A stretch of 64,000 bases of DNA from Candidatus Sysuimicrobium calidum (GCA_031459935.1 JAVKHN010000004.1:14041-78040), one strand, 5' to 3'; shown: positions 3,942-53,832, counted from the stretch's first letter. The notes: generated by a model not told the origin, from the sequence alone. Made by a program: numbers and translations.

Positions 3942-4016
3942 TCCGCGGTAGCTCAACGGTAGAGCGCCCGGCTGTTAACCGGGGGGTTGCAGGTTCGAAT
4001 CCTGCCCGCGGAGCCA
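3942..4016 (+). tRNA. tRNA-Asn (GTT)
   Basis: TCCGCGG acceptor stem, TAGCTCA D-arm, CCCGG-CTGTTAA-CCGGG anticodon arm, GTTCGAATC T-loop, CCA end. Confidence 0.97.
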
Positions 4017-6686: not shown

Positions 6687-7748
6687 ATGCACGTGCACGA
6701 CCTCCTTCGGGAGATGGTGGAGCGGGACGCCAGCGACCTCTACGTGAAGGTAGGCTCCCCGCCCACCTTTCGGGTGCACGGGGAGCTCCAGCCGGGGCCC
6801 TGGGATCGGGTGACCCCCGAGGCGAGCCGGGCGCTTGCGGATCAACTCCTGGACGACGAGCAGCGTCATCAGCTGCGCACGGAACAGAACGTGGACCTAG
6901 CCTACAGCTTCCCCGGGGTGGGTCGGTTCCGGGTCAACATCTACCAGCAGCGGGGTTCTATCGCCTTCGTGGCGCGCCGGGTTCGTACGGACATCCCCTC
7001 CTTCCAGCAGCTGGGCCTTCCGGAGATCCTGGCGGAGCTCGTGATGCGGCCCCGGGGACTGGTGTTCGTCACCGGCCCCACGGGCTCCGGGAAGACCACC
7101 ACCCTCGCGGCCATGATCGATTACCGGAACACCCACGCCTCCGGCCACATCATCACCATCGAGGATCCCATCGAGTTCCTTCACCCCGACAAGCGCAGCC
7201 TGGTGAGCCAGCGGGAGGTGGCCACGGACACCCCCAGTTTCCCCCATGCCCTGCGGGGTGCCCTGCGCCAGGCCCCGGATGTCCTCCTCATCGGGGAGAT
7301 GCGGGACCGGGAGTCTGCGGATGCCGCTCTGTACTTCGCGGAGACCGGGCACCTGGTGCTCAGCACCCTGCACTCCATCAACGCGAGTCAAACCCTGGAG
7401 CGGCTTTTGGCCTTCTTCCCCATGGACCAGGCACAGGAGGTCCTGCACCGCGTCTCCCTCACCCTGGAGGGCATCATCAGCCAGCGCCTCGTTCCCCGAT
7501 CGGACGGGCAGGGTCGGGTGGTGGCCGTGGAGGTCCTGGTGGCCACGCCCCGCATCCGGGAGCTCATCCGGCGCGGGGACTTCGCCGGGATCAAGGTGGC
7601 CATCCAGGCGGGGGGCGGAGAGGGAATGCAGACCTTCGACCAGGCCCTGTATGACCTCTACCAGAAGGGGCTCATCTCCATGGAGGACGCCCTCCGGGCC
7701 GCGGATTCCCCCAACGACCTGCGCCTGCGGATCCGGGGCCTGGCGTAG
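6687..7748 (+). CDS. pilU: Second PilT/PilU family ATPase
   Basis: GPTGSGKTTT, LRQAPDVLLIGEMRD, GMQTFDQAL, ADSPNDLRL (PilU-like C-terminus). Confidence 0.85.
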   Translation: MHVHDLLREMVERDASDLYVKVGSPPTFRVHGELQPGPWDRVTPEASRALADQLLDDEQRHQLRTEQNVDLAYSFPGVGRFRVNIYQQRGSIAFVARRVRTDIPSFQQLGLPEILAELVMRPRGLVFVTGPTGSGKTTTLAAMIDYRNTHASGHIITIEDPIEFLHPDKRSLVSQREVATDTPSFPHALRGALRQAPDVLLIGEMRDRESADAALYFAETGHLVLSTLHSINASQTLERLLAFFPMDQAQEVLHRVSLTLEGIISQRLVPRSDGQGRVVAVEVLVATPRIRELIRRGDFAGIKVAIQAGGGEGMQTFDQALYDLYQKGLISMEDALRAADSPNDLRLRIRGLA

Positions 7749-7858
7749 GGTCCGTGCACCCCCCCAAAAAAAATTTTGCCTGACCCCGAGAAGGCGGTTG
7801 ACAGACACCACGGTCGCGTGATACACAGGGACTTGAAAGTTCATAAGGAATTCTGTCC

Positions 7859-7876
7859 GTGGGCCAGGACGCCCAC
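7859..7876 (+). promoter_or_regulatory. Putative ANTAR-target hexaloop hairpin 1 (amtB leader)
   Basis: GTGGGC-CAGGAC-GCCCAC overlaps the 5' arm of a terminator; the same 14-mer recurs at 10947. Confidence 0.65.
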
Positions 7877-7906
7877 ACCGGCCGGTGTGGGCGTCCTTCT
7901 TTTTAT
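7866..7906 (+). terminator. Leader intrinsic terminator upstream of amtB
   Basis: Perfect inverted repeat AGGACGCCCACACCG/CGGTGTGGGCGTCCT followed by TCTTTTTAT. Confidence 0.85.
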
Positions 7907-7933
7907 TATTCCGTCCGGAGCAGGAGGCGTTCG

Positions 7934-9307
7934 ATGCGACGGGTTGTGGGAGTCCTCATCCTGCTGACGCTGTGCGTGGCCCTGCCCGCGTGGGGTGCCG
8001 ACCCCAGCGGGGCGGAGACCATCAAGCAGAAGCCGGAATCCGCGGTGAACTTCGCCTGGACCCTCATCGCGGCGTTCCTGGTGTTCTTCATGCAGGCGGG
8101 CTTCGCCCTGCTGGGGGCCGGGCTCATCCGATCCAAGAACACGGTGAACTACCTCACGAAGAGCTTCATGGATTTCTGCATCGCCGCTCTCTCCTACTGG
8201 GCGTTCGGGTTCGCCCTCATGTTCGGAGGTAGCCAGCTCAGCAGCGGTCTGGCGCACGGGAATGCGTGGATCGGACTCTCCGGGTTCTTCCTGAGCGGGG
8301 CGGCCTACGATGTCACCACCGTCCTGTACTGGTTCTTCCAGATGGTCTTCGCGGCCACCGCGGCCACCATCGTGGCCGGAGCCATGGCGGAGCGGACGAA
8401 GATCACCGCCTATCTGGCCTACAGCTTCATCGTGTCCGCGGTGATCTACCCCATCTACGGGCACTGGGTGTGGGGCGGTGGGTGGCTGGCGAACCTGCCG
8501 TTCGGGGCGGGAGCCCGGGACTTCGCGGGCTCCGGGGTGGTACACGTGGTCGGGGGACTGCTGGGGCTTGTGGGCGCCGCCATGGTCGGTCCCCGCCTCG
8601 GCAAGTACAACCCGGACGGCACCCCGAATCCCATCCCGGGCCACAACATGACCTACGTGGTGATCGGGACCTTCATCCTGTTCTTCGGGTGGTTCGGCTT
8701 CAACCCCGGCAGCACCCTGGCCGCCACGGACCTGCGCATCTCCGTCATCGCGGTGAACACCTTCCTGGCGGGGGCCGCGGGCGCGGTGGTGGCCCTTTAC
8801 GCGAGCCTCGTGCGCACGGGGAAGGCGGACATCGCCATGGCATGCAACGGCGCGCTGGCGGGTCTGGTGGGGATTACCGCCCCGTGCGCCTACGTGCCCA
8901 CCTGGGCGGCGGTGGTGATCGGGGCCGTCGCGGCCCTCGTAATGATGTGGAGTCTCGGGTTCGTGGAGCGGACCCTGAGGGTGGACGACCCCGTGGGTGC
9001 GGTCTCCGTGCACGCGGCGGGAGGACTGTGGGGGCTGCTGGCCGTGGGGATCTTCGCGGACGGCACGTACGGGGGCGTACGGGGCCTCATCGTGGGGGAG
9101 GTGGGACAGCTCGTGGCCCAGCTCATCAGCATGGGCGTGGTCACCGCCTGGTCGCTGATCACGGGATACCTCATGTTCGCTCTGATCCGCAGCACCATGG
9201 GTCTCCGGGCCTCGCGGGAAGAGGAGCTCCAAGGGCTGGACCTGCCGGAGCACGGCATGCCCGCCTACGTCCTGGAGTCCACCCTGGTGCCTGCGGGGGG
9301 AGCGTGA
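7934..9307 (+). CDS. amtB: Ammonium transporter Amt
   Basis: FFMQAGFA, FQMVFA, GAMAER, DFAGSGVVH, GWFGFN, DDPVGAVSVH; AGGAGG RBS. Confidence 0.96.
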   Translation: MRRVVGVLILLTLCVALPAWGADPSGAETIKQKPESAVNFAWTLIAAFLVFFMQAGFALLGAGLIRSKNTVNYLTKSFMDFCIAALSYWAFGFALMFGGSQLSSGLAHGNAWIGLSGFFLSGAAYDVTTVLYWFFQMVFAATAATIVAGAMAERTKITAYLAYSFIVSAVIYPIYGHWVWGGGWLANLPFGAGARDFAGSGVVHVVGGLLGLVGAAMVGPRLGKYNPDGTPNPIPGHNMTYVVIGTFILFFGWFGFNPGSTLAATDLRISVIAVNTFLAGAAGAVVALYASLVRTGKADIAMACNGALAGLVGITAPCAYVPTWAAVVIGAVAALVMMWSLGFVERTLRVDDPVGAVSVHAAGGLWGLLAVGIFADGTYGGVRGLIVGEVGQLVAQLISMGVVTAWSLITGYLMFALIRSTMGLRASREEELQGLDLPEHGMPAYVLESTLVPAGGA

Positions 9308-9333
9308 AATCCACGGATCAGGAGGGAATGCCG

Positions 9334-9444
9334 ATGGAAGCATGGCTCGCTCTGGGAACCTTCATCGCCCTGTTCTGTGCCTGGGTGGTTCTCCCCAGTC
9401 GCATCCTCCGGGGCCGCCGACCCACGGAGGAGGACGGTGGATAG
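9334..9444 (+). CDS. Small single-TM protein (36-38 aa) between amtB and glnA
   Basis: GGAGGG RBS, MEAWLALGTFIALFCAWVVLPSRILRGRRPTEEDGG, GC-biased third positions, fills the intergenic gap. Confidence 0.6.
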   Translation: MEAWLALGTFIALFCAWVVLPSRILRGRRPTEEDGG

Positions 9445-9487
9445 CGCCCCGGGCCACCGCAGCAGACCACGGAGGGAGGGAAGGAAC

Positions 9488-10927
9488 ATGATGGGAAAGA
9501 CGGTACAGGACGTGCTGAGGCTAGTCAAAGAGAAGAACATCCAGATGGTGGATCTCCGGTTCACGGATGTGCCCGGGGTCTGGCAGCACGCCACGATTCC
9601 CGCCTCGACCCTGGACGAGTCCACCTTCAAGAAGGGGATCGGGTTCGATGGCAGCAGCATCCGCGGCTTCCAGGCCATCCAGGAGAGCGACATGCTGCTC
9701 CTGCCGGATCCCTCCACCGCCTTCGTGGACCCCTTCCTGGAGATTCCGACCCTGGTGATGATCTGCGACGTGGTGGATCCTGAGACCCGCGCTCCCTATA
9801 GCCGGGACCCCCGGTACGTAGCCCGGAAGGCGGAGGCCTACCTCAAGGAAACGGGGATCGCAGACCTCAGCTACTGGGGGCCGGAGATCGAGTTCTTCAT
9901 CTTCGATCATGTGACCTACGAGGTGCTGCCGCACCGCATGGGCTACTGCATCGACAGCCGGGAGGGCATCTGGAACACGGGGAACGACAACGGGAAGAAT
10001 CTCGGCTACAAGATCCGGCCGAAGGAGGGGTACTTCCCCACCCCGCCCAGCGACACCTTCCAGGACATCCGCAGCGAGGCGGCCATGATCCTGGAGCAGA
10101 TCGGCATCCCCGTGGAGATGCATCACCACGAGGTGGCCACCGCGGGCCAGGCGGAGGTGGACATGGAGCGGGACACCCTGGTCCGGATGGCGGACAAGGT
10201 GATGGTCTACAAGTACGTGATGCGCAACGTGGCCCGCCGGCACGGCTGCACCGTCACTTTCATGCCGAAGCCCCTGTTTGGGGACAACGGAAGCGGGATG
10301 CACACCCACCAGAGCTTGTGGAAGGACGGCCGCAACCTCTTCTACGCGGAGGGGAAGTACGGGGAGCTGAGCGATCTGGCCCTCCACTACATTGCGGGTC
10401 TGTTGACCCACGTGGATGCGGTGCTGGCCTTCACGAGCCCCACCACGAACTCCTACAAGCGCCTGGTGCCCCACTACGAGGCTCCTGTGAACGTGGCCTT
10501 CAGCAAGCGAAACCGCAGCGCCTGCGTGCGCATCCCCATGTACTACACGGGACCTGAGGCCGCGGCCAGCAAGCGCATCGAGTTCCGACCCCCCGACCCC
10601 AGCTGCAATCCCTACCTGGCGTTCGCGGCCATGCTCATGGCCGGGCTCGATGGGATCCGGCGCAAGCTGGACGCCTCCCCCTTCGGCCCCCTGGACGTGA
10701 ACACCTACGAGCTCCCGCCGGAGGAGGCGGCCCGGGTGAAGAGCGTGCCCGGCTCGCTGGGGGAGGTCCTCAGTGCCCTGGAGGCGGACCACGAGTTCCT
10801 CCTGGAAGGGGACGTGTTCACGCGGGACCTCATCGAGACCTGGATCGGTTACAAGCGGGAGAAGGAGCTACATGAGGTGAGCATCCGGCCGCATCCCTAC
10901 GAGTTCTACCTGTACTTCGACGTGTAA
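9488..10927 (+). CDS. glnA: Type I glutamine synthetase
   Basis: FDGSSI, HHEVA, TFMPKPLFGDNGSGMHTH, NSYKRLVP, RIEFR; adenylylation-type Tyr in NTYELP. Confidence 0.97.
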   Translation: MMGKTVQDVLRLVKEKNIQMVDLRFTDVPGVWQHATIPASTLDESTFKKGIGFDGSSIRGFQAIQESDMLLLPDPSTAFVDPFLEIPTLVMICDVVDPETRAPYSRDPRYVARKAEAYLKETGIADLSYWGPEIEFFIFDHVTYEVLPHRMGYCIDSREGIWNTGNDNGKNLGYKIRPKEGYFPTPPSDTFQDIRSEAAMILEQIGIPVEMHHHEVATAGQAEVDMERDTLVRMADKVMVYKYVMRNVARRHGCTVTFMPKPLFGDNGSGMHTHQSLWKDGRNLFYAEGKYGELSDLALHYIAGLLTHVDAVLAFTSPTTNSYKRLVPHYEAPVNVAFSKRNRSACVRIPMYYTGPEAAASKRIEFRPPDPSCNPYLAFAAMLMAGLDGIRRKLDASPFGPLDVNTYELPPEEAARVKSVPGSLGEVLSALEADHEFLLEGDVFTRDLIETWIGYKREKELHEVSIRPHPYEFYLYFDV

Positions 10928-10946
10928 CCGCGACGTCCGCGCACAC

Positions 10947-10990
10947 GGGCCAGGACGCCCCCGGTAGGCAACCGGGGGCGTTTTCCTTTC
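10947..10990 (+). terminator. Terminator after glnA overlapped by putative ANTAR hairpin 2
   Basis: GGGC-CAGGAC-GCCC overlapping GACGCCCCCGGT/ACCGGGGGCGTT stem followed by TTCCTTTC. Confidence 0.75.
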
Positions 10991-11001
10991 AGGAGGTGCG
11001 T

Positions 11002-11565
11002 ATGCGGATCCTCATTGCGGACGATGAGCCCCTCATCCGGATGGGCGTGCGCCGGATCCTGGAGGAAGCCGGGCACGAGGTGGTGGGGGAGGTGGCCTCG
11101 GGACGGGAGGCCCTGGAGTTGGTGGACCGGCTGCAGCCCGATCTCCTCGTGCTGGACATCCGCATGGAGCCCACGGACGGGATCGAGGTGGCCCGGCGGG
11201 TGACGGGGAGGGTGCCCGTGGTCTTCCTCACCGCCTACGGCGATCGGGAGCTCCTGGAGGCGGCCCGGGAGGTGGGCGCGTACGCGTACATCACCAAGCC
11301 TTTGGTACCTTCGGAGCTGCTGGCGGCGGTGACGCTCAGCCATCAACGGTTCCGGGAGGTTCAGAGGGCCCGGGAGGCCCTGGAGGCCCGGAAGGTCATC
11401 GAGCGGGCGAAGGGGATTCTGATGAAGCGGCTGGGCCTGGACGAGGAGGAGGCGTACCGCCTCCTTCAGCGGCGGGCCCGCAACCAGCGGAAGACCATGC
11501 GGGAGGTGGCCCAGGCCATCCTGGATTCCGATGCCCTGATCTCCCACCGACGTCCGCCCCGGTGA
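11002..11565 (+). CDS. REC-ANTAR response regulator (PdtaR/EutV/AmiR-like)
   Basis: IADDE, LDIRM, TKP receiver motifs; RKVIERAKGILM...EEEAYRLLQRRA ANTAR domain. Confidence 0.95.
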   Translation: MRILIADDEPLIRMGVRRILEEAGHEVVGEVASGREALELVDRLQPDLLVLDIRMEPTDGIEVARRVTGRVPVVFLTAYGDRELLEAAREVGAYAYITKPLVPSELLAAVTLSHQRFREVQRAREALEARKVIERAKGILMKRLGLDEEEAYRLLQRRARNQRKTMREVAQAILDSDALISHRRPPR

Positions 11566-11638
11566 CCGTATCCGGCTTCCACGGACCCCCGGGGTCGCGG
11601 CAGGGAGGGACCCGGGAGGGGGAGAAACTAACCCCCGG

Positions 11639-12925
11639 ATGGCGTGGCTGGAGGAAGCCCTCGTCGTCCTCCTGCTGCTTTTGGCCAATGCGGCCTTCGC
11701 CGCGGTGGAGACGGCGGTGATCACGGCCCGGGCCGCCCGGTTGGAACGCCTGCGGAGGGCGGGGGAGCGGAAGGCGGAAGCGGCTCTGTACCTGGTTCGT
11801 CACCGGGATCGGTTCCTGGCCGCGGTCCAGATCGGGATCACCCTGGTGGGGACTCTGGCCTCCGCGTATTCGGGCGCCCGCATCGCCCAGCCCCTCGCGG
11901 CAGGACTCCGGAGCTGGCCCTTCCTCGCCCCCTACGCGGATCCCCTGGCCCTGGGCCTCGTGGTGGTGTTCCTGACGTTTCTCTTCCTCGTGGTGGGGGA
12001 GCTCGCGCCCAAGCGCGTGAGCCTGGCGCGGGCGGAGGAGGTGGCGGTAGCCCTCGCCCCCGCCATGCGGGGCTTCACGCGCCTCGTGGCGCCCGCGGTG
12101 GGGCTGCTGACCGCGGCCACGAACGCGGTGCTGTGGCTGGTGGGGCAGGGCCGGGAGCCGGCCCAGCGCATGACCCTGGAGGACTTCAGTACGCTCGTGG
12201 AGGAGAGCGCTCGGACGGGGCTGCTGCGGGAGACCACGGCCAAAGTGCTGTCGGACGTGGTGCGCGTGGCGAACCGGCGCGTAGAGGAGATCATGACCCC
12301 GCGCACGGAGCTGGTGGGCCTCCCCGTGCGCGCCACCTGGCAGGAGGTACTCCACACCGTCCGCGGCTCCACCTACTCCCGCTTTCCCATCTACGAGGGG
12401 GATCTCGATCACATCGTGGGAGTGCTGTACGCCCGGGACCTCGTGGGGTGCTCGGAGGCGGAGGACTGGCAGAGGCTGGTCCGGAGCGTGCCGAGCCTCC
12501 CGGGGACCGTGCGGGTCCTGGAAGCCCTCCGGGTGCTCCAGGAGCACCGGGCCCACGCGGCCGTGGTGCTCGACGAGTACGGGGGGACCGCGGGCTGGGT
12601 CACCCTGGAGGACATCCTGGAGGAGATCGTGGGAGAGATCCCCTCCGAGTACGGCGCGGAGGAGCCGGAGATCGTGGTGCGGGAGGACGGATCCCTGCTG
12701 GTGGACGGCCTCACCCCCCTTTACCAGCTCCTGTCCCGTCTGGGCCTGGAGGAGGAAGCCGTGGACACCGGGGAGGCCACCACCGTGGCCGGGCTCGTGC
12801 TCCACCTCACCGGCCGCATCCCCTCCGTAGGGGAGAAGGTGAGGTTCGGGGGATACGAGATCGAGGTGGTGGACCTGGACGGCCGGCGCATCGACAAGCT
12901 GCTGGTGCGTCCGAGAACCTCCTAA
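11639..12925 (+). CDS. Hemolysin/CNNM (DUF21-CBS-CorC) family protein
   Basis: NAAFAAVETA, QIGIT, GELAPK, YSRFPIY, DEYGG...TLEDILEEIVGEI. Confidence 0.93.
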   Translation: MAWLEEALVVLLLLLANAAFAAVETAVITARAARLERLRRAGERKAEAALYLVRHRDRFLAAVQIGITLVGTLASAYSGARIAQPLAAGLRSWPFLAPYADPLALGLVVVFLTFLFLVVGELAPKRVSLARAEEVAVALAPAMRGFTRLVAPAVGLLTAATNAVLWLVGQGREPAQRMTLEDFSTLVEESARTGLLRETTAKVLSDVVRVANRRVEEIMTPRTELVGLPVRATWQEVLHTVRGSTYSRFPIYEGDLDHIVGVLYARDLVGCSEAEDWQRLVRSVPSLPGTVRVLEALRVLQEHRAHAAVVLDEYGGTAGWVTLEDILEEIVGEIPSEYGAEEPEIVVREDGSLLVDGLTPLYQLLSRLGLEEEAVDTGEATTVAGLVLHLTGRIPSVGEKVRFGGYEIEVVDLDGRRIDKLLVRPRTS

Positions 12926-20633: not shown

Positions 20634-20711
20634 GGGGGCGTGGTGTAGCCTGGTCAACACACCGGCCTGTCACGCCGGAGATCGCGGGTTCAAATCCCGT
20701 CGTCCCCGCCA
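20634..20711 (+). tRNA. tRNA-Asp (GTC)
   Basis: GGGGGCG/CGTCCCC acceptor, CCGGC-CTGTCAC-GCCGG anticodon arm, GTTCAAATC, CCA. Confidence 0.97.
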
Positions 20712-20714
20712 TGG

Positions 20715-20790
20715 GCCTGGGTAGCTCAGGTGGTAGAGCAGGGGACTGAAAATCCCCGTGTCGGGGGTTCGACTCCCTCCCCAGGCACCA
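20715..20790 (+). tRNA. tRNA-Phe (GAA)
   Basis: GCCTGGG acceptor, GGGGA-CTGAAAA-TCCCC anticodon arm, GTTCGACTC, CCA. Confidence 0.97.
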
Positions 20791-20884
20791 GTTCGTACCA
20801 GGATCCCACGATCGGCGGCTGCTGTGTGACATCCTGGCGGTGGCGTGCTCGTCTCCCCCGGACGCGGATCCTGTGCGGATTCGC

Positions 20885-20962
20885 TGGTGCCCCGGACGGG
20901 ATTCGAACCCGTGTTGCCGGCTTGAAAGACCGGAGTCCTAGGCCTGGCTAGACGACCGGGGC
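20885..20962 (-). tRNA. tRNA-Glu (TTC)
   Basis: Reverse strand GCCCCGG...CCGGT-CTTTCAA-GCCGG...GTTCGAATC...CCGGGGCACCA. Confidence 0.97.
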
Positions 20963-27902: not shown

Positions 27903-27953
27903 CTCTCAGCTCCCGTCCGGTTGACGGGCTGTGCTATGCTAACGGTAAACCCG

Positions 27954-28229
27954 AGGACCGGGACGAGTAGGCCGGGCAAGGCACCTCAAGAGAGCCGCGG
28001 AAGGTGGGAGGCGGTGGTGGCCTGCCGGCGGAATGGACCCGCGAGGGGCGGCCCGAACGACTGAGTTGGTCCAGTAGGCGCCGACGGGAGTCCTGCCCCG
28101 TGAACGTGGCAGGCGGGATCAGCTGAATCGGCCTGTCCCGAGAGGGCCGCCGGGGAAACCCGGCGGAAGGCGGGTGGCACCGCGGGAGAACCCCTCCCGT
28201 CCCAGCGGACGGGAGGGGTTTCTGTTTTG
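27954..28229 (+). ncRNA. T-box riboswitch, Trp specifier
   Basis: AGTAG and AGAGAGC/GGTGGGA stem I motifs, GAA-TGG specifier (28034-28036), T-box AAGGCGGGTGGCACCGCG, terminator AACCCCTCCCGTCC/GGACGGGAGGGGTT+TCTGTTTT. Confidence 0.92.
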
Positions 28230-43765: not shown

Positions 43766-43836
43766 AAGCGCCCGAAGGAATGGACCTTCGGGCGCAGGGA
43801 AACCAGCTGGGAAGGGCGCAGCGCTCCCGTTTTGCC

Positions 43837-44006
43837 CGACCTTCTCCCATCCGGACTGTACCGTCGGCCCCGGACTCGCCACAAAGGCGGCTCACCGGCG
43901 TCCACCGCGCCTCAGACCGTGCGCGGGTCGCGGGCTCGCGTCTTCACGCTTACCGCCGGTCGGGAATCACCAGCACTGCGGCCGGCTCACCCTGCCCCGA
44001 AGGTCG
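43837..44006 (-). ncRNA. FMN riboswitch (RFN element)
   Basis: CTTCGGGGCAGGGTGA...TTCCCGACCGGCGGT...AGCCCGCGA...CCGACGGTACAGTCCGGATGGGAGAAG; downstream hairpin at 43768-43795 abuts the ribD ATG and can alternatively pair with the aptamer 5' strand. Confidence 0.95.
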
Positions 44007-44022
44007 CATTCGGTTTACTGCT

Positions 44023-53491: not shown

Positions 53492-53609
53492 CGGACACCT
53501 CCGTCCGGATTTAGGTGGCTGGACCCCGGTGCCACGGAAGGGGACGGAGACGCCCCACGCCTGCGCAGCTTCCGCTTCGCCCCACTCCGCGAGGGCACCG
53601 CGGATCCGG

Positions 53610-53786
53610 CCTGCCGGCAGGTCTTCGGACTCGGGTTCCTCCGGGCAGAACGCCTTCCCAGGCTTGTGGCCCAGTGGCTGTACCGTTCTACCCGTCCCCC
53701 TCACCGCGGCGGGCCCGTCCCGGACTCACGCCCCTGGCAGGCGCTACACCGGCGTTCCCTTTTCACCCCAGAGGGGACCGGCAGGT
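53610..53786 (-). ncRNA. Cobalamin riboswitch
   Basis: GGT...AAAAGGGAA..CCGGTG...AGTCCGG...GCCACTGG...TGGGAAGG...GAGTCCGAAGACCTGCC B12 box on the minus strand, upstream of nrdA. Confidence 0.93.
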
Positions 53787-53832
53787 ACTAGATTTTGTGT
53801 TTGACTTGAGTCATAACACCTACATGTTGAGT
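53785..53832. promoter_or_regulatory. Tandem NrdR boxes
   Basis: gtaCtAgATtTtGtgt (53785-53800) and cacCtAcATgTtGagt (53817-53832), 32 bp apart, matching the CwAyATrTwG core. Confidence 0.8.

Follow-up and report, generated by a model that had tools for sequence, protein, structure and literature searches.

The window analysed here, a stretch of 64,000 nucleotides (nt) from Candidatus Sysuimicrobium calidum (GCA_031459935.1, JAVKHN010000004.1:14041-78040), carries on its + strand an amtB-glnA gene group followed by the gene of a REC-ANTAR response regulator, and two copies of a short hairpin fused to intrinsic terminators that form a candidate RNA switch for these genes. The ammonium transporter gene amtB (7934..9307, 457 amino acids (aa)) was recognized by Pfam Ammonium_transp (E 2e-126) and NCBIfam TIGR00836 (443.7 bits, above cut-off), and glnA (9488..10927, 479 aa), encoding a type I glutamine synthetase, by Pfam Gln-synt_C and Gln-synt_N and by NCBIfam TIGR00653 (632.9 bits, above cut-off). 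Between them lies orf36 (9334..9444), a hydrophobic open reading frame (ORF) of 36 aa with its own ribosome-binding site (RBS) and ATG. The regulator gene (11002..11565, 187 aa; Pfam Response_reg E 5e-28, ANTAR E 1.2e-22) follows glnA after a spacer of 74 nt, which holds a small hairpin, the second antiterminator hairpin, the second terminator and an RBS; another RBS lies between the first terminator and amtB. An initial annotation of this DNA had placed one hairpin copy in the amtB leader and the other between glnA and the REC-ANTAR gene, which agrees with the Pfam and NCBIfam calls. It had also noted that no cognate kinase adjoins the regulator, and the flanks indeed encode a PilT-like ATPase (gene end 7748, upstream of the amtB leader), a CNNM/CorC protein directly after the REC-ANTAR gene and a UPF0182 protein, none of which is a kinase.

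Transcription of the amtB operon probably begins at a promoter-like region at 7798..7826 (+), recognized by eye, in which a -35 element TTGACA (7798-7803) and a -10-like GATACA (7820-7825) are separated by 16 nt. Leaders of relatives also carry TTGACA at a similar distance upstream. A strict consensus promoter scan returned 0 promoter-like sites, this one included.

Two hairpins in competition with terminators

The identical 14-mer GGGCCAGGACGCCC occurs on the + strand at 7861-7874 and 10947-10960, 3.1 kb apart, at the coordinates given by the initial annotation and nowhere else in the genome (2,141,302 bases, 94% complete). The first copy is the core (GGGC/CAGGAC/GCCC, hexaloop 7865-7870) of a predicted antiterminator hairpin, P2, at 7859..7876 (-10.0 kcal/mol), whose stem can be extended to 6 bp. 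It shares 7866-7876 with the 5' arm of terminator T1 (7866..7907, +, -29.7 kcal/mol), which consists of a 14-bp stem (7866-7897) with 10 GC pairs and the tail TCTTTTTATT (7898-7907) and was reported by a consensus terminator scan. The second P2 copy (10947..10960, hexaloop 10951-10956, -6.8 kcal/mol) overlaps in the same manner terminator T2 (10953..10990, +, -25.4 kcal/mol), with a stem of 12-13 bp at 10953-10983 and the tail UUCCUUUC. For both copies, RNA ending before the terminator 3' arm folds as the CAGGAC hexaloop hairpin with a stem of 4-6 bp, and in full-length RNA this hairpin is absorbed into the terminator. Truncated against full-length folding and the free energies thus bear out the earlier proposal that each hairpin and its terminator are mutually exclusive. 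Since P2 is 19-20 kcal/mol weaker than T1 and T2, the antiterminator is unable to win unaided.

The 14-mer as a word is not enriched. Genome-wide, 14 further copies with one mismatch were found against 27 for a reversed control pattern, and within the window 10 matches with at most two mismatches occur against 5.8 expected. The signal is therefore not the word itself but its exact pair in context, each copy being set in one common register relative to a terminator. A hexaloop hairpin overlapping a terminator 5' arm is present in the window and in 77 distinct related units. A permissive scan of 7000-12500 with Rfam release 15 gave nothing below E 0.4, no related family and no ANTAR RNA match.

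Upstream of each P2 the initial annotation had seen a small hairpin with a 5-nt loop, recalling the dual hairpins of known ANTAR sites. Both hairpins fold. AGUUC-AUAAG-GAAUU at 7838-7852 belongs to an irregular 5'-proximal hairpin, P1 (7829..7858, +, pentaloop 7843-7847, -5.4 kcal/mol), and CGCG-ACGUC-CGCG at 10929-10941 (+, -4.7 kcal/mol) lies directly 3' of the glnA stop codon; the gaps to the 14-mer are 8 nt in the amtB leader (6 nt with P2 extended to 7859) and 5 nt in the spacer. The amtB-leader hairpin is kept in two genomes of the same genus, G001 and G002, with loops that differ in sequence and size (window AUAAG; by eye, about CAUAA in G001 and ACAG in G002). The CGCG stems of the spacer hairpin are also kept there, around loops ACGUC (window), GCGUC and GCGCC; the loop ACUGC was not seen in the window, G001 or G002. 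The spacer allows a weak alternative fold with a C1/G4 hexaloop, AC-CGCGAC-GU (10927-10936), which holds in G001 only (GAC-CGCGGC-GUC). Because the pentaloops lack G at position 4 and vary within the genus, the two hairpins are not of the ANTAR type, so that their existence stands and this role does not. This makes the window sites single-hexaloop units, as are many in the genus g2.

To look for other sites in the same genome, a covariance model (R1) was built from 58 related units. The genome returned three matches, with E 8.1e-11 (amtB leader), 1.9e-9 (spacer) and 3.0e-9; all three were in the training set, so these scores follow by construction and the informative part is the lack of other sites. 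Beyond them came reverse-strand echoes of palindromic stems, and the next + strand candidates had E of at least 0.018. A generic repeat was accordingly rejected, there being two exact copies genome-wide and three R1 sites followed by a gap, and the genome scan for the motif before terminators, which had been suggested from the outset, added a third unit before an amtB-like remnant.

This third site (contig C52, 8319-9718) consists of a TTGACA promoter followed by GGC-CGCGAC-GCC and a terminator. Behind it lie a remnant of 92 aa resembling the amtB N-terminus and a protein of about 400 aa without a family. In relatives, including genus g2, the C52-type leader precedes an intact second amtB (three loci). 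The orf36 segment corresponds to the N-terminus of the same protein of about 400 aa. An orf36-like ORF follows amtB in all seven relatives' loci examined for it (consensus approximately EAWLxxxxFxxLFxxWxxLPSRxL); orf36 itself has no Pfam or NCBIfam family.

A structure-only terminator scan of the genome, which was crude, required perfect stems, missed the C52 site and yielded mostly chance hairpins, made only the two window sites and one further leader stand out. The latter precedes a nitrite/sulfite reductase (nirA-like) gene (contig C12, 126200-127530) and reads GGC-CACGUA-GCC, a 9-nt linker and GGC-CCUGAG-GCC. It is a dual hexaloop with G4 in both loops, the second of which overlaps a 14-bp terminator; this leader is probably an additional ANTAR target whose loop is looser. 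The genome's own gltB leader, which adjoins a kinase-ANTAR gene pair on contig C1, has a terminator-like hairpin in which neither R1 nor the search pattern given below found the motif.

A canonical PII protein (GlnB/GlnK) was not found in this 94% complete genome; the sole match (25.3 bits) lies inside an open frame of 784 aa (contig C3, 34777-35010). Clear PII genes (at least 70 bits) occur in 9 of 41 relatives, several of them directly after a motif-controlled classical amtB.

Conservation, loop signature and targets across the phylum

The phylum Sysuimicrobiota (CSP1-3) has been described as one class and one order with five families from hot springs and soils (PMC11604079). The genomes compared here fit this description: 94 at species level fall in a single order, an NCBI-labelled Armatimonadota genome (locus L052) is one of them, and the stretch itself occurs in hot-spring metagenomes. 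Orthologues of the regulator share 88-91% identity within the genus and 55-64% in other families, and remain linked to amtB and glnA despite a permuted gene order: amtB-orf-glnA-ANTAR in the own genus and in G017, ANTAR-amtB-orf-glnA in genus g2, and ANTAR-glnA or ANTAR-amtB elsewhere. Leaders in loci retrieved by the protein and not by the motif carry GGC-CNNGAY-GCC fused to a terminator, often as two tandem units with one terminator each. The unit is thus kept in orthologous leaders although the genes around it have been rearranged, as the reading in the initial annotation required. It stands directly before the orthologous regulator gene in 11 of 14 loci (exceptions L019, L021 and L022), which agrees with the positive feedback on the regulator suggested earlier, and the gate between glnA and the regulator gene, as at T2, is also found in G001 and G002.

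The search pattern GGCCNNGAYGCC N6-36 GGCRT N0-14 TTT, which fixes C1, G4, A5 and Y6 of P2, gave 160 raw matches in 35 of 41 relatives against 9 for its reversed control, with long T runs counting one site repeatedly. It matched 72 of the 94 phylum genomes, and an ANTAR domain occurs in 81 of them; all 94 belong to one order and are related, so that such tallies overstate independence. The motif was found in 70 of the 81 ANTAR-bearing genomes and in 2 of the 13 without ANTAR, namely G063, where it is terminator-like, and G070, where both matches are coding-like. Genera g7 (8 genomes) and g29 (4 genomes) have no ANTAR domain, and 10 of these 12 genomes are also without the motif, representing two separate co-absences. 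Two genomes, G023 and G060, are unpublished; each adds one genome with motif and ANTAR to the tallies, and the conclusions depend on neither. The strict pattern had no match in four NCBI-labelled Armatimonadota genomes, whatever their kinship to the phylum; a fifth genome so labelled, with locus L052, proved to be G046 of this phylum.

Both window loops read CAGGAC, with C instead of A at position 1 and G at position 4, and the altered C1/G4 signature claimed by the initial annotation extends to the terminator-like sites across the phylum. When A, G or T was placed at position 1 of an otherwise equal pattern, the phylum-wide matches were mostly long and coding-like, with about 4-5 terminator-like by eye. 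A single A1 site was found in the phylum, GGC-AACGGC-GCC before the second amtB of G017, and it equals the GnfR site of Geobacter. A second, strong hexaloop hairpin, left unconstrained by the pattern, stands 2-7 nt before P2 in glnA and permease leaders of some relatives. Those of family f4 glnA leaders are CGGUAC-[UGAGAU, UAAGAG, UAAGAC, CAAGAG, UCUGAA, UGAGCC, UCAGAG]-GUACCG, those of permease leaders are GCAC-[CGAGAU, CUCGAU, CCGGAC, CAGGAC]-GUGC, and others are CGAC-CACGAC-GUCG (L020), GUGGCC-GAAGAG-GGCCAC (L044) and a less clear one (L165). Among these strong upstream hairpins, 13 of 14 have G4, and position 1 is U or C, twice G and never A. Judging from these loops, the code of the lineage is Y1-N-N-G4, with A5 and Y6 typical of P2 alone.

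In the 58-row alignment the terminator helix is 93.7% paired, compared with 78.1% in shuffled and 42-56% in slid alignments, and compensatory change is seen in 7 of 12 pairs. The three inner antiterminator pairs are invariant and carry no covariation information. The fourth pair, which the pattern does not fix and whose 5' side lies outside the terminator, is GC in 29 of the 58 rows, AU in 7, GU in 5, CG in 3, UA in 1 and unpaired in 13; over the 77 distinct units it is paired in 63, against 48.2 +/- 2.4 in shuffles. This covariation gives modest but specific support for the antiterminator hairpin.

To survey downstream genes, 38 uncharacterised sites that looked terminator-like by eye were taken from the matches in the 41 relatives, leaving aside G023 as well as coding-like and contig-end sites, and the first plausible ORF was scored as the downstream gene. 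It was glnA at 8 sites, amtB at 7, an APC-type permease gene at 5 (three by Pfam, two by shared N-terminal sequence), a REC-ANTAR gene followed by a PP2C gene at 3, gltB at 2, and SBP_bac_5 and LysE genes at one each. FeS_assembly_P lay about 350 nt downstream at 2 sites, and at the remaining 9 the ORF had no family, one of these sites (L171) being probably a coding false positive. REC-ANTAR genes of a third type, which match ANTAR less well, occur at three loci of family f4, with the motif upstream and a PP2C phosphatase gene downstream. Another observation concerns family f2 (six loci), where a long conserved non-coding stretch lies about 100-300 nt 3' of the kinase-paired ANTAR gene, after a TTGACC-like promoter. 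It reads ...cgccagcgg.agcggttgttcgag.tgggagtgaggtaccg...ggcaacccggcctaactca... and has no Rfam family at gathering score.

The regulator, its paralogues and their kinases

The regulator combines a receiver domain (PF00072) with an ANTAR domain (PF03861) scoring 79.8 bits against a Pfam cut-off of 27.3, and its residues D8, E9, D52 (the acceptor), K99 and P100 are invariant in 13 orthologues. By sequence, the nearest solved structures are 1s8n (E 1.2e-41) and EutV, 6wsh (E 9.8e-37). The former is Rv1626 (PdtaR) of Mycobacterium tuberculosis, likewise an orphan REC-ANTAR protein, which differs in having Met at the plug position discussed below. PdtaS, the partner of PdtaR, is a GAF/PAS HisKA_2-type kinase encoded elsewhere. 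EutV residues R142, K143, K147 and Y164 align with R130, K131, R135 and Y152 of the regulator, and the EutV plug Met172 aligns with R160. In EutV, Y164 stacks on loop G4 and Met172 is essential (PMC8934654). The plug position is Arg in 30 of 30 phylum loci and Met in 77 of 80 outside loci, that is, among the matches listed from distant relatives in Actinomycetota and NCBI-labelled Armatimonadota (at most 52% identity) that served for residue comparison; one exception, L052, belongs to this phylum. Ten such distant loci were scanned for hexaloop-terminator units, and nothing convincing was seen. According to one suggestion, the loop is held open by A1, without any contact of its own, and by the Met plug (Walshe 2022, PMC8934654). 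Both are changed here, but as one lineage event, so that the coincidence is a clue rather than a test.

Three REC-ANTAR genes are present in the genome, in which two HisKA_2 kinase genes were found, each directly upstream of one of the paralogues outside the window: on contig C1 a GAF-GAF-HisKA_2 kinase gene, an ANTAR gene and gltB follow each other, and on contig C7 a kinase gene precedes an ANTAR gene. The C1 paralogue belongs to a kinase-paired orthogroup which in family f5 is the sole ANTAR protein and stands before motif-bearing glnA leaders. The motif is hence not private to the orphan regulator, and either paralogue or both may act. The idea of a loop difference that would separate the paralogues within the genome found no support, since the nirA-like leader is also C1/G4 and Arg160 is common to all paralogues.

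In two RNA libraries of one study, contigs matched parts of amtB, orf36, glnA and the regulator gene without error, one such piece spanning 9186-9484; contigs of this kind are unable to show transcription, ends or strand. In seven DNA runs labelled hot-spring metagenome, from three studies, 69-95% of the sampled words of the stretch were present.

Elsewhere in the window, a T-box-leader-like element lies at 27945-28202 (+; RF00230, 55.5 bits, E 2e-11, under the gathering score of 93), and a near-identical core is also found on contig C25. At gathering score, Rfam reported a cobalamin riboswitch, an FMN riboswitch and four tRNA genes (53599-53797 and 43835-44008, both on the - strand, 3942-4013 and 20634-20962).

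Probable attenuation by an ANTAR protein and competing explanations

The two units, together with their neighbours, are best read as a protein-dependent transcription attenuator of the ANTAR type that would act on amtB-orf36-glnA and on the REC-ANTAR gene, with a probability of about 0.8. The anatomy of the units, their mutually exclusive folds, conservation and covariation, the specificity of the signature, the link to nitrogen and ANTAR genes and the joint loss with ANTAR all support in silico the claim that ammonium uptake and assimilation are controlled by RNA-level antitermination. Under this attenuator model, transcription would start near 7830, and the nascent leader would first present the GGGC-CAGGAC-GCCC hairpin. 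If nothing holds the hairpin, its 3' half would be drawn into T1 and RNA polymerase would stop before amtB. An activated REC-ANTAR dimer, formed by one or more of the three paralogues in response to a signal passed on by a kinase, would clamp the hexaloop hairpin, in which loop G4 would be the base that matters most; the activating step is presumably phosphorylation of Asp52 under nitrogen limitation. Clamping would occupy the terminator 5' arm and allow read-through into amtB, the 36-aa ORF and glnA. The same hairpin would gate T2, so that read-through makes more regulator in a positive feedback, and the C52 unit would be a third member of the regulon.

Several points weigh against this model. 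EutV of Enterococcus faecalis needs both hairpins at a fixed spacing (PMC3369931, PMC8934654), and a second hexaloop hairpin is absent within 2-25 nt upstream of the two P2 in the window. Mutations of A1 weaken the action of EutV and NasR (PMC3369931), and both window loops begin with C. EutV also requires its plug Met for binding, and the Arg that replaces it in this regulator may mean a different contact. The U tract of T2, UUUUCCUUUC, is poor, being interrupted and weaker than that of T1, and the consensus scan missed this terminator. The statistics of the P2 loop are biased, as the pattern fixed C1, G4, A5 and Y6. Genomes of f5 with a single, kinase-paired ANTAR protein keep the motif, so that the orphan beside the window units need not be the binder. 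Finally, two raw metatranscriptome runs, sampled at about 3 in 100 reads, gave 0 reads on the stretch and are thus no test of its transcription.

It is possible, though on balance unlikely, that the RNA switch is real but is run mainly by the kinase-paired C1 paralogue, with the local orphan serving as an amplifier or having another target. The C1 protein is an orthologue (65-66% identity) of the kinase-paired ANTAR protein encoded directly before motif-bearing glnA leaders at two f5 loci; the one-ANTAR f5 genomes are still motif-bearing; and both HisKA_2 kinases found in the genome are paired with the other two paralogues. Moreover, two terminators precede the orphan gene and the 74-nt spacer gives it no separate promoter, so that the loop has to be started by something else. 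On the other hand, it is the orphan orthogroup that accompanies amtB and glnA in families f1 and f7 and in part of f4 and f2, the RNA-contact residues, including the Arg at the EutV Met172 position, are common to all paralogues, so that both may bind, and the motif was not matched in the genome's gltB leader that adjoins the C1 pair.

Far less probable is the view that the two 14-mers are merely similar terminators, with a duplicated or convergent GC-rich stem base, and that amtB and glnA are controlled at the promoter. The invariance of the inner antiterminator pairs, the fact that GACGCC is part of the terminator arm and the lack of an Rfam match would suit it. Yet the GGCC half outside the terminator is invariant while the remaining terminator stem varies freely, the base before this half covaries with the base after GCC, the unit is lost jointly with ANTAR genes, and nearly all matches with a base other than C at loop position 1 are coding-like noise; a terminator between promoter and RBS in a 5' leader also requires a mechanism of relief. 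A DNA operator for a transcription factor or a small-molecule riboswitch is the least credible of all and was rejected: GGC...GCC is also a DNA palindrome and a nitrogen regulon would suit a repressor, but the motif lies downstream of promoter-like elements, in every case on the coding strand and joined to a terminator, one copy follows glnA where no promoter exists, and a 14-nt hairpin without an Rfam riboswitch match is too small for a ligand pocket.

The attenuator model has close precedents. In Geobacter sulfurreducens, experiments demonstrated that the REC-ANTAR protein of the GnfK/GnfR pair relieves leader terminators of nifH, glnK and amtB, and that RNA binding by GnfR requires the kinase (PMC2995071). 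Its published site CAGGCAANGGCGCC has the same GGC/GCC stem around a hexaloop and overlaps a terminator, and the kinase gene is not beside the regulator gene, a precedent for a kinase encoded elsewhere. The Geobacter loop is AANGGC (A1, G4, G5), whereas it is CNNGAY (C1, G4, A5) here; in addition, glnA and the gene of the regulator itself are gated in the window, no sigma-54 cascade is evident and the phylum is different. With EutV/EutW the window system shares the overlap of the hexaloop with the terminator 5' arm, the conserved G4, a REC-ANTAR dimer and the residues aligned with R142, K143, K147 and Y164. It differs from that system in C1 instead of A1, a single hexaloop instead of two hairpins and Arg160 instead of Met172, and the eut kinase gene is adjacent and its target is ethanolamine use. 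A minimal site of one hexaloop, as described by Walshe 2022 (PMC8934654), fits the single-hexaloop units here.

The same wiring, including autoregulation, was predicted in Firmicutes, where Table S2 of Ramesh 2012 (PMC3369931) lists ANTAR RNAs before glutamine synthetase, ammonium transporter-PII and ANTAR regulator genes, for instance glnA-ANTAR in Alkaliphilus, Desulfotomaculum species and MerR-glnA-ANTAR in Thermaerobacter marianensis. Those predictions used an A1/G4 dual-hairpin model and a search outside which this lineage fell, and they are compared here at the level of genes, so that C1 sites may be among them. For ANTAR RNAs of actinobacteria, an action on translation and the retention of A1/G4 have been reported (PMC8164766), and A1/G4 is also the ANTAR loop given by a 2025 review (PMC12591593) and by Mehta and Ramesh 2021 (PMC8164766). 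No paper on ANTAR regulation in this phylum was found in a literature search in which C-first loops were not themselves a search term, and the word "ANTAR" does not occur in the text consulted of the paper describing Sysuimicrobiota. As ANTAR control of amtB, glnA and the regulator's own gene has already been published, by the Ramesh 2012 prediction and by the GnfR experiments on nif, glnK and amtB, the novelty lies in the loop variant and not in the circuit. As far as sequences can tell, and with the Ramesh 2012 hits compared at the level of genes, three features are new: a loop that begins with C or U throughout the lineage, single-hexaloop units as a frequent form, and Arg as the plug residue.

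A broader proposal, speculative and rather doubtful, is that the phylum has re-coded ANTAR recognition, with loop base 1 changed from A to C/U together with the change of the plug from Met to Arg, so that single hexaloops may suffice. It would include a two-tier circuit in which one GAF-GAF-HisKA_2 kinase feeds both its own ANTAR partner and a self-amplifying orphan, gated by the terminator after glnA, in a genome where no canonical PII was found.

Searches for ANTAR targets, like the accepted consensus, assume A1/G4 dual hairpins, and standard models would miss the C1/G4, often single-hexaloop sites of this phylum. Regulators with Arg for Met in an uncultivated and partly thermophilic phylum offer a natural experiment on the roles of A1 and the Met plug, on which the structural work could only speculate (PMC8934654). 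For the lineage itself, the units provide a first testable picture of nitrogen control, in which one RNA signature would govern glnA, amtB, gltB, permease and regulator genes and, in the genome of the window, would do so without a detectable canonical PII protein.

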